In this document: one piece after another, positions 3,420 through 64,000 of the stretch | Layout of the letters: every line of letters begins with the position of its first letter | Numbering within the stretch: position 1 is the stretch's first letter | Assembly: GCF_020073745.1 (NCBI RefSeq) | Contig: NZ_JAIRAU010000047.1 | Location: 221,990-285,989, forward strand | Direction of reading: 5' to 3' | DNA from: Nannocystis pusilla | GTDB lineage: Bacteria > Myxococcota_A > Polyangia > Nannocystales > Nannocystaceae | Length of the DNA: 64,000 nt | Notes under the pieces: generated by a model | The model's input: only the letters and a program-made list of their open reading frames with translations | Databases searched by the model: none | Told to the model about the DNA's origin: nothing | Position numbers and translations under genes: made by a program

Positions 3420-3439
3420 CCCACCTCGCCGGGCTCGGC

Positions 3440-20565: not shown

Positions 20566-20570
20566 GCGGC

Positions 20571-21116
20571 TCAGTAGGCCTCGCCGACCTTGCCGGTGTA
20601 CGTGTAGACGTACTCGACCTCGGGCGCCGGGTCGAACTCCCACTTGAAGGCCGACTCCTCGACGCAGGAGGCGAACAGCTTGGCCTCGCGCGGCTGGAAC
20701 TTGTCCTTCGGCACGCCCTTGGGCGGCCGGCGCTCCTTGATGTCCAGGGCCGGGATGTTGACCTTGGTGACCTTGCCGCTGGTGGCGATGGTGACCTCGA
20801 CCGAGAAGGTGCCGGCGATCCAGCGGTTCTCGTAGGCCTCCATGTCGCGCTGCAGGCAGCGGCCGAAGTCGCGCTCGTACACGCTCTCCATGGTGTCCTG
20901 GATCGACGCCAGGGTCTTCGGCGAGACGGAGGCCTGCGTGTTGCGGTCGTACTCGTCGAGGCCCTCCTCGGACTTCACCATGTCCTTGTCGTACTCCGTC
21001 TTGGTGTACTCGGCGTACATGGCGTCCTCGTTGTTGTCCATCTTGTTGAGGTGGCGCTTGGCGCACCCCGGGCCGGCGAGGGCGGCGGCGAGCAGGATCA
21101 CGGTCGTGGTTCGCAT
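20571..21116 (-). CDS. Lipoprotein, function unknown, embedded in the beta-oxidation cluster
   Basis: Lipobox LAGPGCAK; Lys/Glu/Asp-rich (unusual for this GC content), so a genuine CDS. Confidence 0.6.
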   Translation of the reverse strand: MRTTTVILLAAALAGPGCAKRHLNKMDNNEDAMYAEYTKTEYDKDMVKSEEGLDEYDRNTQASVSPKTLASIQDTMESVYERDFGRCLQRDMEAYENRWIAGTFSVEVTIATSGKVTKVNIPALDIKERRPPKGVPKDKFQPREAKLFASCVEESAFKWEFDPAPEVEYVYTYTGKVGEAY

Positions 21117-21186
21117 GGTGGTTCCTCGAGAGGCTCGTGGGGGAGCCGGGCGATCCGGGGCATGATAGCGCGCCCGAGCCCGGCGG

Positions 21187-22332
21187 TCACTTGCGGCGAA
21201 GGAGGCCGGCGGAGATGACGACGCGCTGGATCTCGCTCGTCCCCTCGTAAATCTCGGTGATCTTGGCGTCCCGGAAGTGGCGCTCGACCGGGTACTCGGT
21301 GACGTAGCCGTTGCCGCCGAACACCTGGATCGCGTCCTTGGCGACCTTGTTGGCCGTCTCGGAGGCGAACAGCTTGGCCATCGAGCTCTCGACCGAGTGC
21401 CGCTGCTTCCGCGCCTTGAGGCTCGCGGCCCGGTAGGTCAGCAGGCGGGCGGCGTCGATGCCGACCTGCATGTCCGCGAGCATGAACGCGATCGCCTGGT
21501 GGTCGATGATCCGGCGGCCGAAGGTCTTGCGGTCGAGCGCGTACTCGGCCGCGGCCTCGAAGGCGGCGCGGGCGATCCCGAGAGCCTGGGCGGCGATGCC
21601 GATCCGCCCGCAGTCGAGGGTGGCCATCGCGACTTTGAAGCCGCCGCCGACCTGGCCCAAAATCTGGTCGTCCGACACGCGGTGGTCGGTGAAGAAGATC
21701 TGGCACGAGTGGCTGGCCCGGATCCCCAGCTTGTCGTCCTTCGGCCCGCGCGACACGCCCTCGCCGTGCATGTCGACGACGAACGCGGTGATGCCCGAGT
21801 TGCCGCGCTCGGGGTCGGTCATGGTGAACAGGATCCCGGTGTCCGCCTGCGGGCCGTTGGTGATCCAGTTCTTGACGCCGTTGATGACCCAGCCGTCGCC
21901 GTCGCGCACCGCCGTGGTCTTCTGCGCCGCCGCGTCGCTGCCGGCGTTGGGCTCGCTCAGCATGAAGCAGCCGAGCTTGTCGCCGCGGGCCAGCGGCGCC
22001 AGCCACTGCTGCTTCTGCGCCTCGGTCGCGAACTTCAGCAGCGGGTCGCACACGAGCGAGTTGTTGACGCTCATGATGACGCCCGTCGAGGCGCACGCGG
22101 CCGAGACCTCCTCCATGGCGATGACGTACGAGATCGGGTCGAGGCCCGAACCGCCGTAGGCCTCGGGGACCTCGATGCCGAGCAGCCCGAGCTCGGCCAT
22201 GCGCTTCACCAGCTCGCGCGGGAACCGGGCCTCGCGATCGAGCTCGGCCGCCAGCGGCTTGACCTCGCGGGCCGCGAACTCGCGGACCATGTTCTGCAGC
22301 GCTTCTTGCTCTTCGGTCAACGACAGGTCCAT
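21187..22332 (-). CDS. Short-chain (butyryl-CoA-type) acyl-CoA dehydrogenase
   Basis: Full-length ACAD homolog (GCFMLSEPNAGSDAAAQ, YVTEYPVERHFRDAKITEIYEGTSEIQR). Confidence 0.9.
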   Translation of the reverse strand: MDLSLTEEQEALQNMVREFAAREVKPLAAELDREARFPRELVKRMAELGLLGIEVPEAYGGSGLDPISYVIAMEEVSAACASTGVIMSVNNSLVCDPLLKFATEAQKQQWLAPLARGDKLGCFMLSEPNAGSDAAAQKTTAVRDGDGWVINGVKNWITNGPQADTGILFTMTDPERGNSGITAFVVDMHGEGVSRGPKDDKLGIRASHSCQIFFTDHRVSDDQILGQVGGGFKVAMATLDCGRIGIAAQALGIARAAFEAAAEYALDRKTFGRRIIDHQAIAFMLADMQVGIDAARLLTYRAASLKARKQRHSVESSMAKLFASETANKVAKDAIQVFGGNGYVTEYPVERHFRDAKITEIYEGTSEIQRVVISAGLLRRK

Positions 22333-22351
22333 CGCGCTCTCGCTCCCTCTC

Positions 22352-23146
22352 TCACCGGCCCTTGAACTCGGGCTTGCGCTTGCCGAGGAAGGCCGCCATG
22401 CCCTCCTTCTGATCGGCGGTGTCGAACAGCCCGGCGAACGCCTCGACCTCGAGCGCGTTGGCCTGCGAAAGCGGCAGGCCGGCGCCGGCGTACAGCACCC
22501 GCTTGGCCTCGGCGACGGCCACTGGGCCCATCTCGGCGATCTTGCGGGCGGTGGCGATCGTCGCCGGCAGCAGCTCGGCCGCCGGCAGCACGCGGTTGAC
22601 CAGGCCGATCCGCGCCGCCTCGGCGGCGTCGATGGTGTCGCCGGCGAGGCACAGCTCGATCGCGCGGGCCAGGCCGACGCGGCGGGCCAGCCGCTGGGTC
22701 CCGCCGAAGCCGGGGATCACGCCGAGCTTGACCTCGGGCTGGCCGAACTTGGCGTTCTCCGCCGCGTAGATGAAGTCGCAGGCCAGCGCCAGCTCGCAGC
22801 CGCCGCCGAGCGCGAAGCCGTTGACGGCGGCGATCGTCGGGATCGGCAGCGAGGCCAGCGCGTCGCCGACGGCGTGGCCGCTGCGGGCGAACTCGCGGGC
22901 TGTCCCGACGGACATGTCGGCCATCGCCGCGATGTCGGCCCCGGCGACGAACGCCTTCTCGCCGGCGCCGGTCAGCACCAGCGCGCGCGCCCGGCCGGCG
23001 CGGGCGGCCTCGGCCGCCTCGTCGAGCACGTGCTGCAGGCCGGCGATCACCGCCTGGTTGAGGGCGTTCAGCGCCTTGGGCCGGTTGATGGTGACGACGA
23101 GGACGCCGGCGTCGTCGTCGACGAGGAGCGTGTCGGTGCCGAGCAT
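22352..23146 (-). CDS. Enoyl-CoA hydratase (crotonase)
   Basis: Crotonase fold motifs (VLTGAGEKAFVAGADI, AAVNGFALGGGCELALACD). Confidence 0.9.
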   Translation of the reverse strand: MLGTDTLLVDDDAGVLVVTINRPKALNALNQAVIAGLQHVLDEAAEAARAGRARALVLTGAGEKAFVAGADIAAMADMSVGTAREFARSGHAVGDALASLPIPTIAAVNGFALGGGCELALACDFIYAAENAKFGQPEVKLGVIPGFGGTQRLARRVGLARAIELCLAGDTIDAAEAARIGLVNRVLPAAELLPATIATARKIAEMGPVAVAEAKRVLYAGAGLPLSQANALEVEAFAGLFDTADQKEGMAAFLGKRKPEFKGR

Positions 23147-25266: not shown

Positions 25267-25544
25267 CACGAAACTCCTTTTGCGCAGCCTGTTGTGCGGC
25301 CGGCGGTGCGCGCGGCGACGCGGCGTCGTCACGGCTGCCGGAAGGCTCGCAAGTTCGCTTAGCACGCGGAGATGCAAGATCTGAAGCCCTGGAGCCGGTC
25401 GCGCCCGCGGCGCGACCTTTGCGCTGACTCACTGCGCTGGCGCATCCGCATGACTTCGGGGAAATAACGTCATGCCCACCCGACCCTCGAGCTTTGCGGT
25501 TGACGATCGCCGCACAGATCGGGTACGAGCGTGGCCCCTTCTTC

Positions 25545-25620
<76 letters not shown>

Positions 25621-25621
<1 letters not shown>

Positions 25622-25656
25622 GCCCGCCCCGTCAGGGAGCGGGCTTTTCTCTTTTC
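25621..25656 (+). terminator. Rho-independent terminator after the tRNA
   Basis: agcccgc-cccgtcaggga-gcgggct followed by ttttctctttt. Confidence 0.55.
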
Positions 25657-25689
25657 GCGGGCCGACGACGCGTCTCCTCGGGCTGCACT

Positions 25690-25830
25690 TCGGGACAGGT
25701 CGACGCTCCCAGTGCGCCCAGGATCCCCGAGCGACCTGTCGCCTCGGACAGGTTGACGGCGGGATCTCGCCCGTGCGGGAGTCGCTGCCTGCCTGGCGCT
25801 TCGGACAGGTCGGCCTCGGTCGATCGCGCC
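25690..25830. repeat. GACAGGTC-variant motif copies (gggacaggtc, gacctgtcgcctcggacaggttg, ttcggacaggtcgg)
   Basis: Same palindrome family with CAGG/CCTG in place of CATG, between the tRNA and the 3' end of the kinase gene. Confidence 0.6.
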
Positions 25831-25832
25831 GG

Positions 25833-28800
25833 TCAGGCCTTCTTGTCGGTCGGATCGCTGCTCGTCGGCTGGGCGGCGTCGTTCGGCTCCGACGCGGGGC
25901 GCTTCGCGCCCGGGGGGCGCGGCAGCAGGCCGCCCCCGCCCGGTCCGGGGATGTCGAACAGCGCCGACTTGGCCCGGGGGCGTGGACTGGTACCGATCGG
26001 TCCCAGCGGCTCGAAGGTCGGCTTCGGCGCCGGGGCCGGGGCCGGCTCGGCGGCGGCAGCGGGAGGCACCTCCGCAGGAGCCGCCGGGGGCTCGGGCGCC
26101 GGAGCGGTCGCGGCTGCCGGGGTCGTCGCGCTCACCGGCGTGGCAGCAGCGGGCGCCGCGGCCGGCCTGGGACCGCCGGTCGCGGCGGCCGCGGGCGTCG
26201 CCTTGCTGCCTGCTCCCAAGGACATGCCCGAAAGACCAGGTCCGGAGAGACCCCGGGCGGGCTCGGCCGCCTTTGCGGTCGCACCGCCTGGCGTCGCGCT
26301 CGTCGGCGCGGACTTCGTCGCGCCCGGGCCCGCCGCGGTGCTCGTCTTCGCCGGGGTGCTGCCCGGACCTGCTGCGGGCGTCTTCGACGCGCCCGTGCCC
26401 GTGGCTGGCGTCTCCGGCTTCGCCGCGCTCGCCGGTCCGCTCAACGCCGGGCGGTTCAGACCCGGGGCCGGCGTCGCCTTCGCGCCCGTCGCTCCGCTGG
26501 CAGCGGCCGGCCTCCCTGCCGGCTTCGTGCCGGCGGGCGCACCGGGCCCAGCTGTCCCCGGGGACCTGTCCGTCAGGCCAGCGCCCGGAGCCCTCGCCGG
26601 GGCTGTCCCCGCGGCCTTCGCCGGCCCGCTCAGAGACGGAACTCCGACGCCCGCCGCCGTCGTCGGCCCGCTCGCCGAGGGAGGCGCCGAAGCCTGTCCG
26701 ATCCCCGCGCTCGCAGCCTTCGCCGGCCCGCTCGCGGCCTTCGCCGGCCCGCTCGCCGGACGCGCCGAAGCCTGCCCGATCGAACCGCTCGACGCAGCTC
26801 TACTGGGCTCGCTGCGCCCCCGTGCGCTCGCGGCGAGCGGCGCGTCGCCGGCCGCGGGCACCGGCCCCGAGCCGCTGCGCCCGGCCGCGGTCGAGATCGT
26901 CGTGCCCGCGCCGAGCGGCGGACGACCTGCAGCGGGGCTGCTCCAGCGGGGCGCCTCACCCGGCTTGCCTGCCCCGCTCGGCTCGGCCGCGGCGCGCGTC
27001 GGCAGCGAGCCGCCTGGCGGCAAGAACGTGCGTCCTGTCGCCGGCGTGCCCTGTCCCGCGACCGACCCGCCGCGCGGTGCCGCGGGCGAACCACTCCCAG
27101 GCGCGCTCGTGCCCGGTGGGACATGTTCGGAAGTACCTGTCCTACCAGACAGCCCAGGCGTCATCGCCGGTTGCCCGTGCGCCGGCGTCGTCGGCCGCGC
27201 GCCTGGCGTGGCTCCGACAGCAGGCTGCCCCTGCGCCGGCGTGGCAGGCCGCGCTCCCGGACCTGGGAGCCCCACGACCGGCTGCCCCTGCGCCGGCGTC
27301 GCCGGCCGCGCCGGACCCGGCGCACCCACGACAGGCTGCGCCGGCGCGGCGGGTCGCGCGCCCAGACCCGGGAGCCCCACGGCAGGCTGCCCCTGCGCCG
27401 GCGTCGCTGGCCGCGCACCCGGCAGCGGGCCCGAAACGCCCAGGCCCGGCGGCCGGCTGGCCGTGGGGACAGGTCCCGAAAGACCTGTCCCGAGCGGCGG
27501 CCGCGGCGCCGTCGGCACGGGCCCGGACGCGCCACGCGCGAGGCCGGGCGTCGCCGTCCCGAGCCCGGCCCGCGGGGCGGGCCCCGAGATCCCGGGCGGC
27601 AGCGGGGCCGGTCCGACCACCGTCTGCCCCGCCGGTCGCGCCGCCACCGGGAGCGGCCCCGACGCGGGGGGCGGCGGTCCGGGCCGCATGACCCCCGGGA
27701 CAGGCCCCAAGGGACCTGCACCGTGCGACATGTCCGTTCCGACATGTCCGGACGTACCTGCCGCTTGCGCCGCCCGCACGCTCTCCGGCACCGGCAGCTC
27801 GGCGGGCATCGTCATCTGGACGGTGTCCTCGTTGGGGTCGGGTTCGCCGTCCGCGAGCTCGTCGACCTCGGCCTCGTCGAATTCCTCGACCTCCTCCGCG
27901 TACCCGCCCTCGTCGGCCTCGGCCTCGTCGCCCTCACCGGCCTCCATGCCCTCGCCGGGATACGACCCGCTCTCGGCCAGCGGCTCCTCGTCCTCGGCCG
28001 CGGCCGCCGCGATCGTCTCCGCGGCGGCGGCGTCCTGATCGATCTCCGGCTCCTCGGGCTCGCTCACCGGCGCCGGCTCCGGCGCGGGCGCAGGCGCGGG
28101 CGCGGACGCAGCGACAGCCGCGGCGCGCAGGCGCTCCCACTCGAGCTCCTCGGCGATCTCCTCCTCGGACTTCACCGGCTCGGCGGCCTTGACCGGCTTC
28201 GACTCCGGCCGGTCTGCGGGCCGCTCGGGGATCCCGAGCGAGGCGCGGCGCTCCTCGAGGATCTTGCGCAGCTCGGCCCGCCCCTCGCGGGTCAGCAGCG
28301 TGCGCGAGCGCCCCTTGGACGACTCGCTGACGCTCGCGCTCGGTCCGCTGCCGGCCGCCAGCGCCTTGTTGCGCAGCGTCTCGTCGACGTTGATCTCGAA
28401 CTCCTCCCCGCCTGTCCCATCGGCCAGGTTCGCGAACGGCCCGCTCACGCGCGGCGGCGGCTTCGGGGCCGGGGGCGGCGGCGCCGGCAGGCTGCGCGGG
28501 CGGAACGAGCCGGCCATGGGGTCGGTCTTGGGCCGCGGGCCGCTCGTCGTCGGCGCCGCGGCCGGCCGCAGCGGCGACGCGCTCGGCTCCTCCCAGTCGT
28601 CCTGCTCGCTCAGCTGGTTGAGGACATCCTGGACCACCACGCGCATCACGTTGGCGCTCGGCCAGCGGGCCACCGGCTCGAACGCCAGCGCGCGGTCGAC
28701 CAGCTCGATGAGCGGCCTGGGCAAGTCGGGTCGCAGCGTCGCCAGCGAGCGCGCCGGCGTGCGGGCCACCGCCAGCAGGCGCTCGATCACCGGGCCCACC

Positions 28801-29492
28801 GCCGGGAAGACCGTCTCGCCCGACAGCGCGCGGAAGATCGTCGCCGCGATCGACCACAGGTCGCTGCGCGCGTCGAGGTTCTCGTTGTCGGCGCGGGCCT
28901 GCTCGGGCGCGATGTACGAGACCGTCCCGAACACGATGCCGTCGCTCTGGTCGAGCGCCTCGGCCGACAGCTCGCGCACGCGGGCGAGCCCGAAGTCCAG
29001 CAGCTTCACGCTGCCGTCGCGGCACAGGAAGATGTTGGCCGGCTTGATGTCGCGGTGGAGGATGCCCTTCGAGTGGGCGGCCGCGAGCACCTCGAGCAGC
29101 GCGTCCGTCATCTCCAGCACCGCCATCGGCGGCAGCTGGCCGAGCCGCTCCAGGCGCGCCTCGAGCGACTCGCCGTCGAGCAGCTCCATCACCAGGTACA
29201 CGTCGCCCTCTTCGGTGATGTCGTCGTCGAGGACGTGGACCGCGTTGCGGTGGCCGACGCTGTTGGCGGCGTAGCCCTCGCGCAGGAAGCGGCGGCGCGC
29301 CTGCTCGTTGCGCAGGAAGAGCGTGTGCAGCACCTTGAGCGCCGCGCGGTTGCCGTTGCGATGCGTCGCCGCGTACACCGACGCCATGCCGCCGATGGCG
29401 ATCAGGCCGTCGAGGTGCCACTTGTTGCGCAGCCACCGGCCCACGCGTCCCTGGGCCTCCGACAAGAACCTCGTGCTGCTGCCCCCGACCAA
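25833..29492 (-). CDS. Serine/threonine protein kinase (1219 aa) with ~900-aa Pro/Ala/Gly/Thr/Lys-rich low-complexity tail containing 19-aa repeats
   Basis: TTG start; N-terminal Hanks domain (GGMASVYAA, HRDIKPANIF, DFGLAR, APE). The tail has GARPATPAQGQPAVGLPGP x4 and many Lys, so it is really coding. Several motif arrays lie in-frame in the tail (27690-27765 encodes GHVGTDMSHGAG). Confidence 0.8.
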   Translation of the reverse strand: MVGGSSTRFLSEAQGRVGRWLRNKWHLDGLIAIGGMASVYAATHRNGNRAALKVLHTLFLRNEQARRRFLREGYAANSVGHRNAVHVLDDDITEEGDVYLVMELLDGESLEARLERLGQLPPMAVLEMTDALLEVLAAAHSKGILHRDIKPANIFLCRDGSVKLLDFGLARVRELSAEALDQSDGIVFGTVSYIAPEQARADNENLDARSDLWSIAATIFRALSGETVFPAVGPVIERLLAVARTPARSLATLRPDLPRPLIELVDRALAFEPVARWPSANVMRVVVQDVLNQLSEQDDWEEPSASPLRPAAAPTTSGPRPKTDPMAGSFRPRSLPAPPPPAPKPPPRVSGPFANLADGTGGEEFEINVDETLRNKALAAGSGPSASVSESSKGRSRTLLTREGRAELRKILEERRASLGIPERPADRPESKPVKAAEPVKSEEEIAEELEWERLRAAAVAASAPAPAPAPEPAPVSEPEEPEIDQDAAAAETIAAAAAEDEEPLAESGSYPGEGMEAGEGDEAEADEGGYAEEVEEFDEAEVDELADGEPDPNEDTVQMTMPAELPVPESVRAAQAAGTSGHVGTDMSHGAGPLGPVPGVMRPGPPPPASGPLPVAARPAGQTVVGPAPLPPGISGPAPRAGLGTATPGLARGASGPVPTAPRPPLGTGLSGPVPTASRPPGLGVSGPLPGARPATPAQGQPAVGLPGLGARPAAPAQPVVGAPGPARPATPAQGQPVVGLPGPGARPATPAQGQPAVGATPGARPTTPAHGQPAMTPGLSGRTGTSEHVPPGTSAPGSGSPAAPRGGSVAGQGTPATGRTFLPPGGSLPTRAAAEPSGAGKPGEAPRWSSPAAGRPPLGAGTTISTAAGRSGSGPVPAAGDAPLAASARGRSEPSRAASSGSIGQASARPASGPAKAASGPAKAASAGIGQASAPPSASGPTTAAGVGVPSLSGPAKAAGTAPARAPGAGLTDRSPGTAGPGAPAGTKPAGRPAAASGATGAKATPAPGLNRPALSGPASAAKPETPATGTGASKTPAAGPGSTPAKTSTAAGPGATKSAPTSATPGGATAKAAEPARGLSGPGLSGMSLGAGSKATPAAAATGGPRPAAAPAAATPVSATTPAAATAPAPEPPAAPAEVPPAAAAEPAPAPAPKPTFEPLGPIGTSPRPRAKSALFDIPGPGGGGLLPRPPGAKRPASEPNDAAQPTSSDPTDKKA

Positions 29493-29786
29493 GCGCGCTC
29501 AGGATCACGACTGAGGGTGTAGGGTGTCAAGCATGCTGGGGGGCACGCGCCGCAGTCCGTGCGCCGCGCTGCGAGCCGCGTTCGCCGCCGCCGCCAGCGG
29601 CCTCATGCGCAAGGGAACGCCGCTCGACCGGCGTGCCGGGCGGTTCCGCCCGAAACCGCGGCGAGCGAGGCGAACATCGCCGTTCCAACATGTCCAGCGC
29701 GCCACCCGAACAGCGGCATCGCGGTCACGCGCGCGCTTTCGTCGGTTTTTTGGTCGACCTCGACGACCGGTCTACGCTCTCGAACC

Positions 29787-32829: not shown

Positions 32830-32905
32830 CCGACATGCGCCGAAGGGCATGCCCCTTCGAGCATGCACATCGGGACATGCCCTCGCGGACATGTCCGAAG
32901 CGACA
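32830..32905. repeat. GGACATGTCC-type motif array; convergent intergenic
   Basis: cgacatgcgccgaagggcatgccccttcgagcatgcacatcgggacatgccctcgcggacatgtccgaag. Confidence 0.8.
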
Positions 32906-42429: not shown

Positions 42430-42500
42430 TTCATGCCCGAAGGACCATGCTCCTTCGGACATTCCCCTCAGGACATGTCCGTCACGACATGCCCCGGAGG
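42430..42500. repeat. Motif array with hairpin-capable copy (CCGAAGGA-ccatgc-TCCTTCGG)
   Basis: catgcccgaaggaccatgctccttcggacattcccctcaggacatgtccgtcacgacatgcccc. Confidence 0.8.
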
Positions 42501-54329: not shown

Positions 54330-54380
54330 ACGCCTCTTCGGACATGTCCGTCACGACATGTCCAGGAAAACATCACGGCG
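54330..54380. repeat. Motif array abutting the sulfatase stop codon
   Basis: cttcggacatgtccgtcacgacatgtccagg (two exact or near-exact GGACATGTCC). Confidence 0.8.
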
Positions 54381-56647: not shown

Positions 56648-58684
56648 TCAGGGCGCGACCAGGATCCGCGCCGAGCGGGCCGGCACCGTCACCATCGGCC
56701 CCTCGACCATCTCGCCGGTCAGCTCGTCCTTCAGCGTCATCGCCGGCAGGTTGCCGACCGACTTGTCCGCGTCGCTGCGGTTGACGGCCACCGTCACCGT
56801 CTCGCCCTCGCCGGACATCGAGTAGGCGAAGCTGTCGGCGTCGGCGCCGAGGCGCGTGTACGACCCGCGGCGCAGCGCCGGGTGGGCCGCGCGGATCGCC
56901 CCCAGATCCTGGATATGACCCAAGAGCCAGGTCTGCCCCGCCGAGTAGCCGTCCCACTGCATGAAGCGGCGGTTGTCGGGGTCGCCGGCGCCGGGCATGC
57001 CGACCTCGTCGCCGTAGTACACCAGCGGCGCGCCGAGCGACGTGTAGAGCATCGTGAAGCTCAGCCCCAGGCGCTCGAACGCCGCGGCGCCGCCCGGCAG
57101 CCCCGGCTTGTTGTCCCACGCCCGGTCCTTGCCGTCGGCCCACTGGTTGTTCCACAGCGGCGAGTCCTCGGCCAGGTGGATCGCGCGCGGGATGTCGTGG
57201 TTGCCGATGAACGTGCTCATCACCGCCGCCCCGCCGTTGTAATAATTATTGTTGGCGTCGTAGAAGTCGGCCAGCTCCGTCATCGAGCCCTGGCGCATCA
57301 GCACGTTGTAGGCCATCTGCATGCGCAACGGGAAGTCGAACTGGCCGTCGAGCTTGTCGCAGCCGACGTACTTGTTGATGGTCGGCTTGTCGCCCGTGAA
57401 CGTCTCGCCGACCATGTAGAAGTGCTGACCCGACATCGGCTCGACGTCGGCCTGGACGCGCGCGCGCAGGTCGGTCAGCCACTCGATCTTGATGTGCTTG
57501 ACCGCGTCGAGGCGGAACCCGTCGGCGCCGGTGTCCATGATCCACTGGATCGCGTTGTCGATCGAGAATTCGCGGGCCGCCTGGTTGCTGAAGTCGAAGT
57601 CGGGCAGGTAGTCGGTGAACCAGCAGCGCTCGCCGTCGGCCCCGTCCCACGAGCAGCCGGCCCCGCACACGCAATCGCCGCCGCTCCCGTTGTCGTTGGG
57701 GTTGAACCAGTCGGGGTTGTCGGCGTAGACCGGCGCGCTGATGTGCACGTGGTTCATCGCGTAGTCGAGGATCACCTTGAGGTCGGCCGCGTGGGCCGCC
57801 GCCACCAGCGCCTGCAGTTCCGCCAGCGTGCCGAAGTGCTCCTCGGTCTGCGTCAGGTCGGTCGGCCAGTAGCCGTGGTACGCGCTGTACAGGTGCCCGT
57901 CGGTGCCGAGGCCGTCGTCCGAGGTGTTGTTCATCGGCACCGTCAGCCACAGCGTGTTGATCCCGAGCTCGGTGAAGTACCCCTCCTCGATCTTCGCCGT
58001 CACCCCGGCCCAGTCGCCGCCCTGCCAGTCGGCCGCCGTCTCCACCCCGATCAGCGCGTCGTTGCCCGGATTGCCGTTGTTGAAGCGGTCGACGAACACG
58101 AAGTAGATCACCGCGTCGCGCCAGTCGAACTGGCCCTCCTGCGGCGCCCCGCACGAGGCCGCCTCGCAGGTGAACGGGTCGCACGTCTTCGGCTCGAGCA
58201 CCGAGTTGTAGCCGCCGAACCCGTCGTCGACCTGCTCGGGGTTGTTCGGGTCGGGGATCCAGCTCATCGACCCGTCGATGCGCAGCTTGTACTGCACGGG
58301 CGTGTCCCACGGGACAGTCACCGTCACGCGCCAGGTCGTCCCGTCGCTCTTCATCGCCGCGCCCTTCGTCCACCCGTCGGGCGCGAAGCTCCCCATCACG
58401 TCGACCGACGTCTCGCCGTTGTCGGGGTGCGTGAATTCGTGGTCGCAACGCTTCAGCGCGTCGTCGCACATCGGCGGCGGCGGCTCGCCCGTGGTCGGCT
58501 CGCCGGTCGTCGGCTCGGGCCCTCCCGTGGCGTAGCCCGTCACGTTCCCGCCCTGCGACGGGTCGTACGGCATCGTGCTCGGCGGCATCGTCACCGAGTC
58601 CGTCGTCTCCGACATGAGCGGCGGATCGGTGCAGCCGACCCACAAGATCGAAAGGACAGGCAGGATCCGGTGCGAGCGCGACAC
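56648..58684 (-). CDS. Alpha-amylase family glycoside hydrolase (GH13), secreted/lipoprotein
   Basis: GH13 regions (DYAMNHV, GFRLDAVKHI, EXXXXXXXW, FIGNHD); GTG start gives signal LSILWVGCT. Confidence 0.85.
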   Translation of the reverse strand: MSRSHRILPVLSILWVGCTDPPLMSETTDSVTMPPSTMPYDPSQGGNVTGYATGGPEPTTGEPTTGEPPPPMCDDALKRCDHEFTHPDNGETSVDVMGSFAPDGWTKGAAMKSDGTTWRVTVTVPWDTPVQYKLRIDGSMSWIPDPNNPEQVDDGFGGYNSVLEPKTCDPFTCEAASCGAPQEGQFDWRDAVIYFVFVDRFNNGNPGNDALIGVETAADWQGGDWAGVTAKIEEGYFTELGINTLWLTVPMNNTSDDGLGTDGHLYSAYHGYWPTDLTQTEEHFGTLAELQALVAAAHAADLKVILDYAMNHVHISAPVYADNPDWFNPNDNGSGGDCVCGAGCSWDGADGERCWFTDYLPDFDFSNQAAREFSIDNAIQWIMDTGADGFRLDAVKHIKIEWLTDLRARVQADVEPMSGQHFYMVGETFTGDKPTINKYVGCDKLDGQFDFPLRMQMAYNVLMRQGSMTELADFYDANNNYYNGGAAVMSTFIGNHDIPRAIHLAEDSPLWNNQWADGKDRAWDNKPGLPGGAAAFERLGLSFTMLYTSLGAPLVYYGDEVGMPGAGDPDNRRFMQWDGYSAGQTWLLGHIQDLGAIRAAHPALRRGSYTRLGADADSFAYSMSGEGETVTVAVNRSDADKSVGNLPAMTLKDELTGEMVEGPMVTVPARSARILVAP

Positions 58685-58894
58685 GCGGCCCCGAGGATGG
58701 CGCCTCGCCCGGCTCGCGGTCAAGCGCCCGGCCGCCTCCGACCCACGCCCGCCGACCTCGGGCCGCGGACGACCGGCCCCGACCGGCCCCGCCATTTACA
58801 TGTCTTTTAAAACATGTCGAATCAGCCAGACCGAGCGCTCCGTTGTCGCCTCCGCTGAGCATTTCTCGGCCCGGCGACGAGCGGGGCCCACGAC

Positions 58895-59095
58895 GCTCGC
58901 TGCAGGCGGGCACGGAGCGGCGGATTTGGGACGCCGGTGGGACGGAGACGCGGTTCAGCGCGCGCAGGCGCCCGTCCTCCGCGCGCGCGACGAACATGTC
59001 CTCAAGAGCATCTTGTCCCCAGCCAAGGCGCCGAGCACGTGAACCGGTGGGGGCCCGCCGAGCGAGGGGCCCAAATCCGCCGCTCCGTGCCCGCC
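58895..59095. mobile_element. ~200-bp MITE-like repeat with 26-bp terminal inverted repeats (copy 1)
   Basis: GGCGGGCACGGAGCGGCGGATTTGGG at 58895-58920 and its exact reverse complement at 59070-59095; ~90% identical second copy begins at ~63836 and is truncated by the window end. Confidence 0.55.
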
Positions 59096-59215
59096 GTCAC
59101 CCAGTTCTTCCGGGCCCCGCGCCTTCGCACGCGCCTTCCGGGCCCCCGCGCCTTCGCACGCGCCAAGCCCAGTTCTTCCGGGTTCCGCGCCTTCGCACGC
59201 GCCAAGCTCAGCCGC
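59095..59215. repeat. 37-bp tandem repeat x3 (ttcttccgggccccgcgccttcgcacgcgccaagcccag)
   Basis: Three consecutive copies with minor substitutions directly 3' of the MITE-like element. Confidence 0.7.
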
Positions 59216-59217
59216 GT

Positions 59218-60135
59218 TCACCCCGGCCCGAAGTCCTGGCGATAGCTACCGCGCTCGATGTCCTCGACCAGCCCCGGCCGCGACGGACGCCAGCCGAGCG
59301 CCCGCGCGTGCGTCGCTCGCACCCGGCTGTTGGACGCCAGGCCCAGGGCCGCAGCCTCCTCGCCGAGCGCCGCGATCGCCTCGGCCAGCGGCCACGACGT
59401 CGTGCGGTCGCCGAACCCGAGCAGGTGCGCGATCGCCAGCGCCACCTCGCGCAGCGACGTCTCGCCGTTCTCCGCGAAGAAGAAGCTGCCGGGCTCGGCC
59501 TTGTCGATCACCAGCGTGTACAGGTCGACGAGGTCGTCGATGTGCACGTTCGACCAGATGTTGCGACCTTCGCCGATGTACACCCCCGCGCCGCGCTGCT
59601 GCGACTCGCGGATCAGCATCGGCACCTGGATCGAGTCGCGCTTGCTGCCGGTGCCGCGGCCGTAGATCATCGTCGGGCACACCACGACGCTGCAGACCCC
59701 CTGGTGGGCCGCGTCGCGGACGAAGCGGTCGATGGCCACGCGCGCCGCCTTCGCCGGCACCGGCGTGAACGGCGAGTCGTCGGTGAACACCTGCTCCGAC
59801 CGCTCGCCCGTGCCGACCTCGGCCACGATCGACGACCCGCTGGTGTGTACCAGCGTCTTGCCGCTCCCGCGCATCCCGGCGACCAGCGCCTCGACCGCCG
59901 GGCGGTGGTCCGCGTCCGCCGTGCTGATCACCAGGTCGGCCGCGTCGGCCAGGCGCACCAGGAGGTCCGTATCGTCGAGCCCGCCGATCACCGGCCGCAC
60001 GCCCGTCGCCTCCACCCGGACCGCGCTCGCCGGATCGCGGACCAGGCCCGTCACCTCGTAGCCGTCCTGCACCAGCCGTCGCGCCACCGAGCCGCCGATA
60101 TAACCGGAAACACCTGTCACAAATGCACGCTTCAT
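59218..60135 (-). CDS. NAD(P)-dependent epimerase/dehydratase (NmrA/SDR-like)
   Basis: Rossmann motif VTGVSGYIGGSVARRL; ATG at 60133-60135. Confidence 0.8.
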   Translation of the reverse strand: MKRAFVTGVSGYIGGSVARRLVQDGYEVTGLVRDPASAVRVEATGVRPVIGGLDDTDLLVRLADAADLVISTADADHRPAVEALVAGMRGSGKTLVHTSGSSIVAEVGTGERSEQVFTDDSPFTPVPAKAARVAIDRFVRDAAHQGVCSVVVCPTMIYGRGTGSKRDSIQVPMLIRESQQRGAGVYIGEGRNIWSNVHIDDLVDLYTLVIDKAEPGSFFFAENGETSLREVALAIAHLLGFGDRTTSWPLAEAIAALGEEAAALGLASNSRVRATHARALGWRPSRPGLVEDIERGSYRQDFGPG

Positions 60136-60227
60136 CTCGCTGCTCCTGTGCCGCGAGCATGGTGTGTTCCTGCGCAGCATGGTAGTGTGATTCCTGGCAC
60201 ACCATCTGTGCCTGAAAGGCAAACCTC
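60136..60227. promoter_or_regulatory. Divergent LysR-type intergenic region with inverted repeats
   Basis: ATGGTGTG ... CACACCAT (8-bp inverted repeat) and GGCACA-ccatct-GTGCC between the epimerase and LysR starts. Confidence 0.4.
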
Positions 60228-61115
60228 GTGGACCTGTCGCCGCAACTCCACGCGTTCGTCCGCAGCGTGCGGGCGGGCAGCTTCAGCGCCGCCGCGCGCG
60301 AGGCCGGCACCACCCCCTCGGCCTTCAGCAAGCAGGTCGCGCGGCTCGAGCAGAAGCTCGGCGTACCGCTGGTCGTGCGCAGCGGCCAGGGTCTGCAGCC
60401 GACCCTTGAGGGCGAGGCCCTGTTCGCGCGGGTGCAGCGGGCCTTCGACGACATCACCGACGCCTGCGAGGAGGCCGCCCGGGCCACCGGCCCGCGCGGG
60501 CAGGTCCGCCTGAGCGCCCCGGTCGAGCTCGGCCACGCCTGGCTGGTCCCGCGCCTGCCCGCCCTGCACCGCGCGCACCCGCAGATCGCCGTCGCGCTCG
60601 AGCTCGCCGATCGCTTCGTCGACCTGCACGCCGAGCAATTCGACCTCGCCTTGCGCGTCGGCGGCGACGGCGACGGCCGGCTCGTCCAGCGGCGGCTCGG
60701 TCGCCTGCGCCGCTGCTTCTGCGCCACCCCGGCCTACCTCAAGGCCCACGGCGTCCCGCGCACCCCCGAGGCCCTCGCGGGTCACCGCCTGCTCGCCATC
60801 CTCCGCGCCGGCCGGCGCGTCGTCTGGGAGCTGCCCGGCGGCGGCCGCCTCACCCCGCAGGGCCCCGTCGCCAGCGACAGCAACGAGGCCCTGCGCCAGC
60901 TCGTCCTCGCCGGCATGGGCATCGCCTGGCTGCCCGACGTCACGATCGCCGTCGACCTCAAGCGCGGCGCCCTGCGCCAGCTCTTCGCCGACACCCCCGA
61001 GGAGCCCGGCCTGCCGATCCAGCTCGTGTTCCCGCAGAGCCGCCTGCTCGCCCCGCGCGTCCGCGCCGTCGTCGACTTCCTCGTCGCCGCCGCCCGCAGC
61101 ACCATGTCCGCATGA
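60228..61115 (+). CDS. LysR family transcriptional regulator
   Basis: N-terminal HTH (LHAFVRSVRAGSFSAAAREAGTTPSAFSKQVARLE) + LysR substrate-binding domain; divergent to the epimerase. Confidence 0.85.
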   Translation: MDLSPQLHAFVRSVRAGSFSAAAREAGTTPSAFSKQVARLEQKLGVPLVVRSGQGLQPTLEGEALFARVQRAFDDITDACEEAARATGPRGQVRLSAPVELGHAWLVPRLPALHRAHPQIAVALELADRFVDLHAEQFDLALRVGGDGDGRLVQRRLGRLRRCFCATPAYLKAHGVPRTPEALAGHRLLAILRAGRRVVWELPGGGRLTPQGPVASDSNEALRQLVLAGMGIAWLPDVTIAVDLKRGALRQLFADTPEEPGLPIQLVFPQSRLLAPRVRAVVDFLVAAARSTMSA

Positions 61116-61180
61116 ACATGTCCTTGTCGCCATGTTCCTCGGCGCGGCGCGCAGCGAAGCCTGCACGAACCTGTCCCGAG
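61110..61180. repeat. Motif array 3' of the LysR regulator gene
   Basis: accatgtccgcatgaacatgtccttgtcgccatgttcctcg ... gaacctgtcccgag. Confidence 0.75.
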
Positions 61181-61228
61181 GGCCATATTACACGCACGCC
61201 GACAATGCCCTTTTCGTAATTCAGATCA

Positions 61229-61245
61229 CCAAACTTGCAGTTTGG
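61229..61245. promoter_or_regulatory. Inverted repeat CCAAACT-tgc-AGTTTGG in an AT-richer leader
   Basis: 7-bp arms; followed by GTGATAGTTT (-10-like) about 35 bp upstream of the 61281 start. Confidence 0.35.
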
Positions 61246-61280
61246 CGGTAACGGCGCCTCCGTGATAGTTTCGGCCGGAC

Positions 61281-61886
61281 ATGACCGTCGATCCGGCACG
61301 TTTCGGGCGCACGGCCGCCGTCCTGGCCCGCGGCCCGCTCGGCCTGCTCGCGCTGTGCCTCGTGTTCTCGTACGGCGTCGCCAACATGTTCGGCAGCCTC
61401 GCCGTCGCCCACCTCACCCCCGGGCAGCGCGACGTCCTGCTCGGATTCGTGGTCGTGTTCCCGTTCGTCGTGTTCGCCGGGCTGTTCCGCCTGATCACCC
61501 ACCATCACACCAAGCTCTACGCCCCCGCCGACTTCCGCGACGAGCGCCACTTCGTCGCCGTCGGCCGCCCGTCGCCCGGGCGCCTCACCCCCGTCAGCCC
61601 GCCGGCGCTCGTCGAGCCGGTCGTCCACGGCGACGACTTCGTCATGATCGACGTCGCCCCGCCGGCCAACACCGCCCCGCGCGCCCTGTCCGGCTTCTGG
61701 ACCCGCGCCGGCGAGACCTACTACGTCACCCGCCAGGGCCGCGTCTACCTCCTGCGCTCCCCCGCCCAGCAGGCCCAGATCACCCGCGTCGACGCCCTCC
61801 CCGACGGCTGCAGCCCGATCGCCAGCCAGCACTGCGACTCCGCCCTGTGCGCCCTCGCGGAGGTCGCCGACTCGCGCGCCGGCTGA
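61281..61886 (+). CDS. Hypothetical membrane protein
   Basis: Two N-terminal TM helices; protein-like and non-R-rich. Confidence 0.5.
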   Translation: MTVDPARFGRTAAVLARGPLGLLALCLVFSYGVANMFGSLAVAHLTPGQRDVLLGFVVVFPFVVFAGLFRLITHHHTKLYAPADFRDERHFVAVGRPSPGRLTPVSPPALVEPVVHGDDFVMIDVAPPANTAPRALSGFWTRAGETYYVTRQGRVYLLRSPAQQAQITRVDALPDGCSPIASQHCDSALCALAEVADSRAG

Positions 61887-61922
61887 TTGAAAGTCTCCTC
61901 GGCTCGAGTCACCGTCACGGCA

Positions 61923-62177
61923 TCAGTCGGGCCAGGATCCCAATTCACCGCCATCCACGATGGCCTTGATCAACTCGTGCTTCCCCGCGAATCTGATGAA
62001 GACTCGCGCGAAGAACTCCAGATCGAAGTCACACGCTGGAGAGACGCCAGCTCGCGTCTCTTGCCAGAGAGCGGCGAACAACGCGCCCACCAGATCCCGC
62101 GTCTTCTCGTCGTCAATTTCGTCGATCAGAAGCACGGCCTCTTCCTGGCGGATCAAGACACCCTTCGCGTCGCTCAT
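61923..62177 (-). CDS. Small hypothetical protein (84 aa) in a lower-GC (~58%) patch; Walker-B-like LLIDEID
   Basis: AGGACGGAGAG SD + ATG (62175-62177); MSDAKGVLIRQEEAVLLIDEIDDEKTRDLVGALFAALWQE...; local GC clearly below the surroundings. Confidence 0.4.
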   Translation of the reverse strand: MSDAKGVLIRQEEAVLLIDEIDDEKTRDLVGALFAALWQETRAGVSPACDFDLEFFARVFIRFAGKHELIKAIVDGGELGSWPD

Positions 62178-62236
62178 CTCTCCGTCCTTTCGAGTCATCC
62201 ACCACGGCGGCGCTCCTCGCGGCCGCGGGGCGAGAT

Positions 62237-62872
62237 TCACCCTCCCGCCGCCCGCTCGCACCGCGCGGCGTAGCTGCGCATCAGCTCGGCGAGCTCTGGC
62301 GAGTGCTGCGGTTCGGCCGCCCGGAGCTCGCGCTCGAGCAGCGCGAGGCGCTCGTCGACAGCGAGGCCGCGGAGTTGTTCGGCGAGCTCTGCCAGCGCGC
62401 CGCCCTCGACGCCCAGTTCGTCCCGCGCCTCGACCTCGGCCGCGATCGCTCGCGCCTCGCCGGCGATCACCGCCTCGAGCTGCTGCGAGCACGGGACAGC
62501 TGGAGCGGGGAAGCGGTCGAGGCCATCGGCCACATGCTCGAGGAGGTGCACGATCCGTGCGATGCTCGCCGGCTCGGGCGCCGATCGATCGAGCACCAGC
62601 ACGCCTCCGGCGCGCACGCTGCCGAGCTCCCGGCCGCCGAAGCAGATCTTGTAGTCGCGCAGCCCCAGCCCCGCCAGCGCGCGTGCCCCCGAGCGGATGT
62701 TCGTCACGCCTTCGAGCAACGTCGCAGCGCGCCTCGGCTCGGCGACAGTCCCTTCGGGGCAGCCCGTCGTCGGGCTCGCGGCCCGATCCGCGCCCGCCAT
62801 CACCGGCGTGCCGCAGCCCGGCAGCGCCGTCGCCAGGACGAGGCACAGGACGCGATACCGGCGGGCATGCAC
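62237..62872 (-). CDS. Hypothetical lipoprotein
   Basis: Lipobox ALPGCG; helical C-terminal half; immediately upstream of the small gene. Confidence 0.5.
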   Translation of the reverse strand: MHARRYRVLCLVLATALPGCGTPVMAGADRAASPTTGCPEGTVAEPRRAATLLEGVTNIRSGARALAGLGLRDYKICFGGRELGSVRAGGVLVLDRSAPEPASIARIVHLLEHVADGLDRFPAPAVPCSQQLEAVIAGEARAIAAEVEARDELGVEGGALAELAEQLRGLAVDERLALLERELRAAEPQHSPELAELMRSYAARCERAAGG

Positions 62873-62949
62873 GCTGCGATGATAACCTGCGAGCGGTCCC
62901 CCGCGCGGCCGCCGTTGCTGCCACCGCCGGCGACGTGTAGCATCGAACG

Positions 62950-63564
62950 ATGCTTATCGCGCCTCCTTATCGCTTCGTTGGCCGGTGGTGTGCCGCCGCC
63001 CTGCTCGCCCTCCTCGCCGCCACGAGCGGCGTCGCCCGGGCCGACGTCGTCGACGTGCCGCCGGACTGCCCCGACGGCGCCACCCCGAACGGCTGTCACA
63101 GCGGCCCGTACTGCAGCCCCCAGGATTGCAGCGACGACACGACCTGTCCCGAAGGCAAGGTGTGCCGGCCCGTCGAGAAGTGCGCCCAGCCCTTCGAGTG
63201 CGGCGGCGGCTTCACCACCAGCGCTGGCGGCAACCTCATCGACGACATCGTCGGCGAGTGCGGCGACGGGGGCGCCTGCGCCAAGGGGACGTGCAAGATG
63301 TTCAAGCTGTGTGTCTCGGAGAGCGCGACGACCAGCGACACCGCCGGCAGTTCCGTCACGGGCTCCGGCTCCGGCGACTCGACCGCGAGCGGCGGCTCCA
63401 GCGGCGCCGGCTCGGGCTCGGGCTCCGGCGACTCCGCCGCGAGCAGCGGCGGCGCCCCGACCAAGCCCCTCGGCTGCGACGGCTGCCGCGCCGGCGAAGA
63501 CCGCACGCCCGCGCTGATGCTGCTCGCGTCGCTGGCCCTGGCGCTGCGCCGGCGCCGACGATGA
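62950..63564 (+). CDS. Secreted Cys-rich protein with MYXO-CTERM sorting signal
   Basis: Signal peptide; Cys-rich domain; G/S-rich linker; C-terminal GCDGC + hydrophobic helix + RRRRR (MYXO-CTERM). Confidence 0.75.
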   Translation: MLIAPPYRFVGRWCAAALLALLAATSGVARADVVDVPPDCPDGATPNGCHSGPYCSPQDCSDDTTCPEGKVCRPVEKCAQPFECGGGFTTSAGGNLIDDIVGECGDGGACAKGTCKMFKLCVSESATTSDTAGSSVTGSGSGDSTASGGSSGAGSGSGSGDSAASSGGAPTKPLGCDGCRAGEDRTPALMLLASLALALRRRRR

Positions 63565-63835
63565 ACCCCCGAGCGCTCGCGTTCACCCGCGATGCCCGCC
63601 CGGCCGCGCGAACTCCTCGGCGCAACGAATTCGCCCCCGCCATCCACATGTCCCAAAGAACATTCTGTCCAAAGAGACAGCGTTGAGCCGATCGAGCGGT
63701 AGCGCCCTCGACCCCTGCCGCCCCGCGGCACGGACGCGCGACAATCGTCGTACGCGAACGCTGACGCCCGTGCAACGCAATCCAGCGCACGCCGACCCCG
63801 GTCTTCAACGAGGCGCCTGCGCACGTCCCTCCCCG

Positions 63836-64000
63836 CCCGGCCACGAGCGGGGCCCGCGACGCTCGTCGAGAGGCGGGCACGGAGCGGCGGATTTGGGACG
63901 CCGGTGGGACGGAGACGCGGTTCAGCGCGCGCAGGCGCCCGTCCTGTGCCGGATCGACGAACCTGTCCTCAAGGCCATCCTGTCCAAAGAGACAGCGCCG
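63836..64000. mobile_element. Second (truncated by window) copy of the MITE-like repeat
   Basis: 63872-63897 = the same 26-bp TIR; 63836-63990 ~90% identical to 58858-59020; ends with ...cctgtcctcaaggccatcctgtccaaagagacagcg, similar to 63640-63680. Confidence 0.5.

Follow-up and report, generated by a model that had tools for sequence, protein, structure and literature searches.

Low-copy palindromic repeats at gene 3' ends in a Nannocystis subclade

Two similar repeats lie near the end of the window, the 64,000-nt (64-kb) stretch of Nannocystis pusilla DNA that was analysed here. As direct repeats at a distance of 4,967 bp, they raise the question of what kind of element they are and whether they enclose a mobile segment. 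Palindromic interspersed repeats are little described in Myxococcota, and the open-access literature yielded none for Nannocystis besides the msDNA-like repeats discussed below. The low-copy palindromic family described here, which we call family A, is new. It is also small enough to reconstruct every insertion.

Sequence and fold of the repeat unit

Exactly three matches to the 26-mer GGCGGGCACGGAGCGGCGGATTTGGG lie in the window, on the plus strand at 58905-58930 and 63872-63897 and on the minus strand at 59070-59095, while no occurrence is expected by chance. Two of these occurrences are the arms of copy 1. The left arm (58905..58930) is one half of a perfect inverted repeat, with an exact match, and is the same in every copy and species. 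The right arm (59070..59095), 139 nt away, is 100% complementary to it in copy 1. In the relatives the right arm carries A>G in copies 2 and 3 and additionally C>T in copy 3, and both changes yield G.U or G.T pairs on the plus strand. Between the arms, the inner 139 nt (58931..59069) continue the palindrome in degenerate form, as helices 5-8 of the predicted fold. The apex holds two RCATGYC-like 14-nt units at about 58992-59030, and this is where the variation among the copies clusters.

Outside the arms, the outer left stem GCCCGGCGACGAGCGGGGCCCACGACGCTCGCTGCA (58866..58904) is partnered with the outer right stem GTCACCCAGTTCTTCCGGGCCCCGCGCCTTCGCACGCGCC (59096..59135) in RNAalifold helices 1-3, which are kept in six of the six full copies. 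On the gene-sense minus strand the outer right stem has the reading ...GGGTGAC, and in copy 2 of the relatives the TGA within it is the stop codon of an extended TetR ORF. Similarity between the copies starts at about 58866, 37 nt to the left of the left arm, and in the full copies of the relatives it extends about 40-60 nt to the right of the right arm. Because similarity reaches beyond the arms on both sides, the 26-nt arms are sub-terminal. The inverted repeats thus do not form the unit termini as they do in a MITE, and the outer parts build an additional imperfect stem. The initial annotation had described two MITE-like copies of about 200 bp with 26-bp terminal inverted repeats; the repeats and their perfect 26-nt arms are real, but the arms are not terminal and the unit measures about 270 nt.

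Copy 1 also possesses a tail of tandem repeats (59107..59205), built of two 29-nt units and a third degenerate unit with CCGCGCCTTCGCACGCGCC in each, which bridges the distance to the stop codon of the epimerase gene (59218-59220). Tails are found at the other copies as well, with other unit lengths: copy 2 has 4.2 units of 33 nt, and copy 3 is also tailed. Copy 2 is cut by the window end (63834..64000) and comprises the outer left stem (63834-63871), the arm (63872-63897) and inner part (63898-64000). It was correctly noted before as a similar copy running off the window, and its alignment with copy 1, which begins at about 63834 and reaches the end of the window, shows 88% identity across 130 nt without gaps. 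Full versions of copy 2 are present in strain SCPEA4 (L052:6340-6611) and N. radixulma (L031:478-749), both of which run into the 3' end of the TetR gene. An arm-less paralogue of the central ~90 nt of the element lies at 63618..63707, 130 nt to the left of copy 2, with about 70% identity (nhmmer E = 7e-8; local alignment z = 8 against shuffles).

Over its full ~270 nt (58866-59135), the unit is predicted to fold into one rod-like imperfect palindrome with 84 pairs. Paired cells make up 97.4%, compared to 30-44% with the partner slid. Both strands of the unit fold equally well, with minimum free energies between -146 and -188 kcal/mol; copy 1 reaches z = -3.8. Substitutions affect 19 of 168 paired columns versus 33 of 123 unpaired columns (p = 0.001), and the one-sided stem changes all give G.U on the plus strand. 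There is one compensatory change, from C-G to G-C in copy 3, and covariation was not significant, with 72-97 of 500 shuffles matching the observed values. Indels of 1 nt and of 10-11 nt between the copies disrupt every reading frame of the unit, and therefore a coding role is ruled out. No promoter-like or terminator-like signal was found in the unit, and Rfam gave no family match for it even at E <= 10.

Insertion sites, distribution and age

Every copy of family A is positioned at the very 3' terminus of a gene and has the same orientation relative to it. The upstream genes are an epimerase gene for copy 1, a TetR gene for copy 2 and an acyl-CoA thioesterase gene for copy 3. The tail side of all three copies faces the stop codon, and the tails abut or replace the final codons; taken by itself, the orientation rule has p = 0.25 at n = 3. 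At the NAD-dependent epimerase gene (59218..60135, minus strand) the element directly follows the TGA, the last sense codon has changed from K to G relative to the outgroups, and the ancestral post-stop sequence picks up again past the element. The TetR gene reads through the tail for about 53-55 aa to the TGA beside the arm (two genomes). The thioesterase C-terminus is replaced, giving 150 aa versus 141 aa. Target-site duplications, proposed earlier as a check, were found neither at the arm nor at the outer boundaries of copies 1-3, which are known within a few nt, nor in the comparison of the empty with the filled epimerase-stop site.

The TetR 3' site in N. punicea holds an unrelated palindromic family (family B), with 21-nt perfect arms and 2.9 copies of a 404-nt unit. 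Therefore several palindromic families are found at gene ends in this genus. That three of three family A copies lie at a stop codon in one orientation, that two of them rewrote the C-terminus and that an unrelated family shares a site together point to a targeted insertion process, for which the family A insertions offer a concrete and testable set of loci.

The copy number is taken from an exact 18-mer scan of 185,579 species with one genome each, a search which diverged copies escape. N. radixulma is the only species-representative genome with 18-mer matches. Its four arm matches correspond to three elements on two contigs, with the third copy on a separate contig (L011), and the exact-word scan detected no further locus in this genome. 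A copy beyond the window pair thus exists, but the count stays at about three in N. radixulma by exact 18-mer. A scan of one metagenome returned a chance match only.

The window strain is about 95% identical to N. radixulma, and copies 1 and 2 occupy the same sites in N. radixulma and in strain SCPEA4. Strain ILAH1 and an uncultured relative (Logan contig L061) carry no insertion at either window site, and family A is missing at both of these sites in N. punicea. The site of copy 3 is unoccupied in N. pusilla L056 and in N. bainbridge L058. The paralogs are equidistant in a star-like manner, with identities of 0.88-0.90, while those of orthologs are 0.944-0.975. As the three paralogs are about equally distant, the neighbouring pair is no tandem or segmental duplicate; together with the third copy on another N. 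radixulma contig, this removes a mere local duplication as the origin of the pair. The three insertions, at mutually unrelated sites, took place in an ancestor shared by N. radixulma, SCPEA4 and the window strain, and the copies were passed on vertically afterwards.

Orthologous units differ by 2.5-5%, versus 11-16% in the intergenic DNA next to them (Fisher p = 2e-5 to 1.5e-4). Compared with fourfold-degenerate sites, conservation of the unit was not significantly higher in two of three comparisons. No insertion polymorphism was seen within the repeat-bearing clade, and therefore there is no sign of current mobility. The sole difference within the clade is a 2,507-bp deletion in SCPEA4 with the microhomology CTGG, which took out the core of copy 3.

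The bracketed segment and rival readings

Copy 1 is located between an amylase gene (56648-58795, minus strand) and the epimerase gene. Between copy 1 and copy 2 the genes follow as previously annotated: epimerase, LysR (60228-61115, plus), a membrane protein (61281-61886, plus), an 84-aa ORF (61923-62177, minus), a lipobox protein (62237-62872, minus) and a MYXO-CTERM protein (62950-63564, plus; TIGR03901 match). The lower GC of the 84-aa ORF is likewise confirmed (0.59 versus 0.73 for the window). Its region is an indel specific to the window strain, displacing a 170-nt RCATGYC-array spacer, and another genome of N. pusilla carries an 80%-identical homologue elsewhere, not at this locus. The low-GC ORF does not belong to the repeat family.

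The initial annotation considered the repeat-flanked segment a candidate for gain, loss or inversion, which would make the two copies the ends of a composite or recombination-bounded block. The direct orientation of the copies would suit such a block, as would the lipoprotein and MYXO-CTERM genes beside copy 2, which are confined to the same clade as the repeats. We regard it as very improbable nevertheless, since the epimerase, LysR and membrane genes hold the same order and place in the repeat-free N. punicea, ILAH1 and L061. The 4.8-kb segment is therefore ancestral and no repeat-borne island. Codon usage, another of the proposed checks, gives native GC3 values of 0.93-0.97 for these three genes. 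Furthermore, none of the three repeat-bearing genomes has a deletion or inversion of the segment, copy 2 is about equally far from copy 1 and from the unlinked copy 3, and the low-GC ORF came in separately. The two window copies are independent insertions 4.97 kb apart that define no mobile segment, which in practice means that the 4.8 kb should not be treated as a mobile island. The clade-restricted genes beside copy 2 also enter another reading, in which tail and hairpin are the junction module of cassettes that integrate at gene 3' ends and bring new C-terminal codons with a stop, and maybe cargo. Two of the three upstream genes had their last codons replaced and took a new stop from the element, the lipoprotein and MYXO-CTERM genes directly adjoin copy 2, a DUF4240-like gene that N. 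pusilla and N. bainbridge lack at this site adjoins copy 3, and the other palindromic family sits at the TetR 3' site of N. punicea. Still, copy 1 comes without cargo, the window ORFs that were tested include no integrase, neither element nor target is repeated at the far end of the putative cargo, and the GC3 of the putative cargo genes is native. Moreover, other causes, such as an ISL3 element in N. bainbridge, make the DNA downstream of the thioesterase gene variable in every species, and we consider cassettes an improbable origin.

Two further readings concern the hairpin itself. The repeats might be retron-derived, either as integrated msDNA copies or as orphan msr-msd repeats with the reverse transcriptase (RT) encoded elsewhere. 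Nannocystis offers a precedent in Retron-Nex1 (Ne160), for which PMC6868368 gives a duplicated msr/msd with no RT within a kilobase. The long stable hairpin, a 26-nt inverted repeat inside the 8-30 nt range of end repeats (PMC6868368), the few copies and the lack of a transposase would all agree with it. The inner arm end, however, lacks a priming G in (T)AGC in either arm and on either strand: it reads ...GGATTTGGG followed by A (plus strand) or C (minus strand), and the sole AGC lies 12 nt inside the arm. The consensus fold is one symmetric rod up to the apex instead of msr hairpins and a separate msd hairpin, and Rfam is silent at E = 10. Among the ORFs tested in the 64 kb there was none with YxDD, VTG and NAxxH and no RT Pfam match. 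The neighbours of the copies are amylase, epimerase, TetR, thioesterase and a DUF4240-like gene, with no adjacent retron RT, and N. radixulma has no fourth 18-mer locus that could be a master retron. A retron derivation is accordingly doubtful, at about the same level as cassettes. Somewhat less doubtful, yet unlikely as well, is a structured RNA gene or cis-element of the host, such as a small RNA or 3' UTR regulator, whose duplication to three loci served its function, as opposed to a selfish element. In its favour are conservation well above that of adjacent non-coding DNA, substitutions that avoid paired columns, one-sided stem changes that all give G.U on the plus strand, the very stable hairpin and the constant position relative to stop codons. 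N. punicea, ILAH1 and L061, however, lack the unit at both sites, which means that any function is not conserved across the genus. The two strands fold equally well, covariation is not significant, the unit has no promoter-like or terminator-like signal and no Rfam family, and the copy 3 core was deleted in SCPEA4 without obvious replacement.

Preferred reading and comparison with known systems

On balance, we favour the reading that the repeats form a small family of interspersed palindromes, non-coding and specific to one lineage, which are MITE/REPIN-like in form. Each has a ~270-nt imperfect palindrome, a perfectly conserved 26-bp stem at its core and a tail of tandem repeats that varies between copies. 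The earlier idea of a non-autonomous transposon family holds for the dispersed non-coding hairpin repeats and their empty sites, while target-site duplications are not seen and the copies number only ~3. The ORFs tested in the 64-kb window include no transposase, integrase or RT, and neither these ORFs nor the exact 18-mer scan of N. radixulma revealed an autonomous partner. Dispersal would have been by a trans-acting enzyme encoded elsewhere, possibly one recognising folded single-stranded hairpins, which would fit the missing target duplications and the orientation bias. Each copy is probably co-transcribed as the 3' UTR of its upstream gene, because it lies directly downstream of the stop codon or is fused to it. 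There the 26-bp perfect duplex could serve as a transcript-end structure or as an RNase III-type processing site. A function of this kind might account for the stronger conservation of the unit relative to nearby non-coding DNA.

More speculatively, and with rather low probability, the long hairpin elements of families A and B would both have been inserted at stop codons by a hairpin- or single-strand-specific mechanism that rewrites the C-terminus, with retron-RT integration as one candidate. If so, the fixed copies would be genomic footprints of retron-RT-mediated integration of msDNA-like DNA. Family A therewith bears on the old question whether msDNA-like DNA integrates into the chromosome. 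Repetitive msDNA-like sequences were reported in N. exedens (Lampson & Rice 1997, Mol Microbiol 23:813; Lampson et al. 2002), and a retron-type origin, with integration of msDNA-like DNA by a retron RT, was suspected for them (Lampson & Rice 1997), both as cited in PMC6868368. Like these, family A belongs to Nannocystis and consists of a few chromosomal, hairpin-rich, non-coding copies with no RT nearby; the retron hallmarks set it apart, as it lacks the priming G context, the msr hairpins and the asymmetry.

REPINs (PMC3116915, PMC3337134) form populations of tens to hundreds with a single RAYT gene flanked by REPs. Family A resembles them in having two inverted ~20-26-nt sequences with a spacer that form a hairpin, and in being extragenic, vertically inherited and persistent without classical TIR/TSD signatures (PMC3116915, PMC3337134). 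It differs from them in that about three copies are known and the 139-nt spacer is itself palindromic. The ORFs tested in the window contain no RAYT (Y1 transposase) gene.

The Correia elements of Neisseria are about 100-155 bp long, with 26-bp terminal inverted repeats and a TA target duplication, and are present in hundreds of copies that are co-transcribed and cut by RNase III. Family A shares with them the small, non-coding and intergenic nature, the 26-nt inverted repeat, the long hairpin, the presence or absence between related genomes and a position predicted to allow co-transcription with the neighbour gene. In contrast to Correia elements, it has sub-terminal arms, no target duplication, about three copies and no cognate IS among the window ORFs tested or in the exact 18-mer scan of N. 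radixulma, and is always found at a stop codon in one orientation with a tandem-repeat tail.

Integron attC sites are imperfect palindromes of fixed orientation that lie at the 3' end of an ORF or overlap it and act as folded single strands. An imperfect palindrome at an ORF 3' end in fixed orientation is also what family A presents. However, it has no R''/R' core sites (RYYYAAC / GTTRRRY), integrase or cassette array: GTTRRRY does not occur on reading the family A unit, and no integrase is among the ORFs tested in the window. It lies beside core chromosomal genes, and even the largest attC is half as long.

The ERIC or IRU elements of enterobacteria are ~127-bp imperfect palindromes in transcribed intergenic regions. 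Like them, family A is an imperfect palindrome over its whole length beside gene ends, in DNA predicted to be transcribed, and its copy number is low, as theirs is low to moderate in some species. It is unrelated to them in sequence, twice as long, restricted to one Nannocystis subclade and equipped with a tandem-repeat tail.

Structure and conservation of the family A unit

The 26-mer GGCGGGCACGGAGCGGCGGATTTGGG occurs at positions 58905-58930 (+), 59070-59095 (-) and 63872-63897 (+), where none is expected by chance in the window. The first two occurrences are the inverted arms of one palindromic unit (copy 1, 58866-59135), which we call family A. The third belongs to copy 2, which aligns with copy 1 at 88% identity over 130 gapless nucleotides, between about 63834 and the end of the window. 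The repeat reported in the initial annotation is thus confirmed, with coordinates that were close and a gene content that was described correctly. Its perfect inverted arms also stand, but they are sub-terminal in a unit of about 270 nt, and not the terminal inverted repeats of a ~200-bp element. An alignment of six full copies (window, N. radixulma and strain SCPEA4, L052) places the limits of homology about 37 nt outside the left arm and about 40-60 nt outside the right arm.

According to RNAalifold, the whole ~270-nt unit forms one rod with 84 pairs. Its outer stem is imperfect (GCGGGGCCCG / CGGGCCCCGC); further in come the invariant 26-bp stem and a degenerate palindrome up to the apex, in which two RCATGYC units are located. 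In the aligned copies 97.4% of the cells assigned to pairs are paired, versus 30-44% when the partners are slid, and the folding energies range from -146 to -188 kcal/mol on either strand. For a putative RNA, one-sided changes point to the plus strand, but the minimum free energy is lower on the minus strand in five of six copies. To the right of the palindrome, in window orientation, follows a tandem-repeat tail, the repeat unit of which varies by copy: copy 1 has a 29-nt unit, and copy 2 a 33-nt unit repeated 4.2 times. A coding function of the unit is excluded, because indels of 1 nt and of 10-11 nt between the copies break the frame.

Orthologous units diverge by 2.5-5%, compared to 11-16% in the intergenic DNA directly to their left (p = 2e-5 to 1.5e-4). 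In the flanking genes, fourfold sites diverge by 6-9%, and just one of three comparisons shows a significant difference from the unit. Substitutions are found in 19 of 168 paired versus 33 of 123 unpaired columns (p = 0.001). The alignment contains a single compensatory pair, together with several U-A to U.G changes, but the covariation test on the six sequences was not significant.

An arm-less paralogue of the central 90 nt (63618-63707; ~70% identity, z = 8), lies 130 nt left of copy 2 and is shared with SCPEA4 and N. radixulma; it is possibly a progenitor or else a remnant. Apart from this paralogue, an nhmmer profile of the unit detected no diverged copies in about 190 kb of Nannocystis DNA.

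Distribution and history of the copies

We searched for exact 18-mers in 185,579 species, each represented by one genome, and obtained 51 stretches, two of which are real, both in Nannocystis radixulma. One (L031) is syntenic with the window at ~95% identity and carries both window copies; the other, a separate contig (L011), carries copy 3, so that the family extends beyond the local pair. A single metagenome match to a 21-mer of the arm lies within a coding sequence, shares these 21 nt alone and was dismissed as chance. BLAST searches against plasmids and phages returned no match.

Using the epimerase gene, we retrieved syntenic loci from SCPEA4 (96%), N. punicea, strain ILAH1 and an uncultured relative (L061). 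The window, SCPEA4 and N. radixulma have both copies 1 and 2; N. punicea, ILAH1 and the uncultured relative have neither. The gene order P450-TetR / membrane protein-LysR-epimerase-amylase is nevertheless kept in these three copy-less lineages. Therefore the genes between the repeats are ancestral and the repeats were added later, which removes the reading as a composite element and with it the repeat-bracketed segment that the initial annotation took as a candidate for gain, loss or inversion. The lipoprotein and MYXO-CTERM genes are restricted to the repeat-bearing clade.

Copy 3 lies behind an acyl-CoA thioesterase gene in N. radixulma and is absent from N. pusilla (L056) and N. bainbridge (L058). 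In SCPEA4 only its tail is left. This strain lacks 2,507 bp of the N. radixulma sequence (L057:4488-4491 versus L011:2183-4689), with a 4-bp CTGG microhomology at the junction; lost are the core of copy 3 and most of a DUF4240-like gene, which is intact in N. radixulma. A 47-aa ORF remnant is left in SCPEA4. We considered the boundary of tail and core as a recombination site, but a 4-bp microhomology deletion inside the intact N. radixulma gene is the better explanation. The interval between the thioesterase and MbnP genes differs in each species sampled. In N. bainbridge it is an ISL3-family transposase gene that lies downstream of the thioesterase gene (L058:4370-6139), preceded by a duplicate, about 55 nt long, from the 3' end of the thioesterase gene.

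The paralogs are about equidistant (identity 0.88-0.90) and the orthologs have identities of 0.944-0.975, so the sequences fit three roughly simultaneous insertions in the ancestor of the clade and vertical inheritance since then.

Position at gene 3' ends and the probable nature of family A

Each of the three copies is oriented alike with respect to its upstream gene, its tail pointing to the 3' end of that gene. At the epimerase gene (59218-60135, -), the sequence that follows the TGA in the outgroups (GGACGGGGCGAACG...) picks up in the window only past the element, and the last sense codon is altered. At copy 2, in SCPEA4 and N. radixulma, the TetR gene has lost its final codons and stop. 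The tail adds about 53-55 aa to the reading frame, in the form of (A)ESGELRSSGG(AG) repeats (L052:6180-6380; L031:330-480), and the frame ends at the TGA of GGGTGAC beside the arm. The repeat lengths of this tail are multiples of three and the frame is open in both. At copy 3 the C-terminus of the thioesterase is replaced (150 aa versus 141 aa).

The best reading is that family A comprises new, very low-copy palindromic interspersed elements in the MITE / REPIN / ERIC tradition, inserted at gene 3' ends and now fixed. The MITE-like, non-autonomous family proposed initially is partly right and in line with the third copy on another contig, but several hallmarks of these elements are lacking: the arms are sub-terminal, the copy number is not high and no direct repeats, and hence no target-site duplications, flank any of the three copies. 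No transposase, integrase or reverse transcriptase (RT) gene was found among the ORFs tested in the window. The copies would be co-transcribed with their upstream genes, and the perfect 26-bp duplex could then act in the transcript as a 3'-end or RNase III-type structure. Scans for sigma-70 promoters and intrinsic terminators found none, and a sigma-54-like GGCACG-N-GC noticed by eye inside the arm is wrongly spaced.

A retron origin is worth mentioning, since msr/msd-like repeats without a nearby RT have been reported from N. exedens (Lampson and Rice 1997, as cited in PMC6868368). However, in tests of family A we found no priming-G context, no msr hairpins, no asymmetric fold, no adjacent RT and no Rfam match; searches of Rfam at gathering thresholds with the whole window and at E <= 10 with the element gave no relevant family. 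That the unit is a purely host-functional RNA, or the junction of an integrating cassette, is possible with low probability. Family A would be of more than modest interest if stop-codon targeting or the retron link were true.

Where copy 2 sits in the clade of the window, N. punicea has a different palindromic family at the TetR 3' site. This family B, between the TetR and membrane-protein genes (L053:6843-7998, CP114040), is a non-coding 404-nt unit x 2.9 with 97% identity, one unit spanning L053:6843-7247. Each unit contains a perfect 21-nt inverted repeat (GCCGCGAGCGGGCCCCGGATC) with arms 188 nt apart and folds as a ~250-nt rod. The sequence similarity between families A and B is not significant (z ~1.3).

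RCATGYC arrays, the low-GC ORF and other window features

Arrays of the palindrome RCATGYC with a strict 14-nt period, of two to five units each, are found in nearly every intergenic region of the window, for example at 3439-3510, 8482-8560, 27727-27762, 32832-32895, 42458-42493, 54341-54362, 58798-58818 and 63645-63690. There are 60 pairs with period 14, versus 0.33 expected. Neighbouring units pair as 8-10-bp hairpins on either strand, and some spacers between convergent genes are made entirely of such arrays. Half of the single-unit matches lie at most 150 nt from a stop codon, a zone covering 16% of the window. Every Nannocystis species that we sampled has such arrays, and three unrelated GC-rich loci have none. 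They look like a genus-wide REP-like motif, of which we found no earlier report in the open-access papers searched.

The low-GC 84-aa ORF (61923-62177, -; GC 0.59, GC3 0.75) has no relation to the repeats that bracket it. At this position it is found in the window strain only, where it takes the place of a 170-nt spacer as a separate small indel. It is 100% identical to an annotated protein of an N. pusilla assembly, and a homologue (80%, GC 0.51) is found in a further N. pusilla genome at a locus of no relation to this one (L060:6001-6255), the shared DNA around the loci being only about 290 nt. The ORF had no Pfam, NCBIfam, PADLOC or PHROG match and only marginal matches to PDB sequences (E >= 0.02); its structure prediction (pLDDT 58) was too poor for a fold search. 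Confined to Nannocystis, at loci that differ between strains, and predicted to be helical, it resembles in its behaviour a very small mobile gene, although no mobility functions are visible.

Beside a tRNA gene (25545-25618), a 4-kb stretch (25429-29522) lacks ORFs that show the usual GC3 signature; it includes tandem repeats of 105-111 nt at 27167-27452. A 45-nt tandem repeat lies within an ORF at 1212-1570, and two paralogous acyl-CoA dehydrogenase genes, 1,846 bp apart, are located at 19326-22716.
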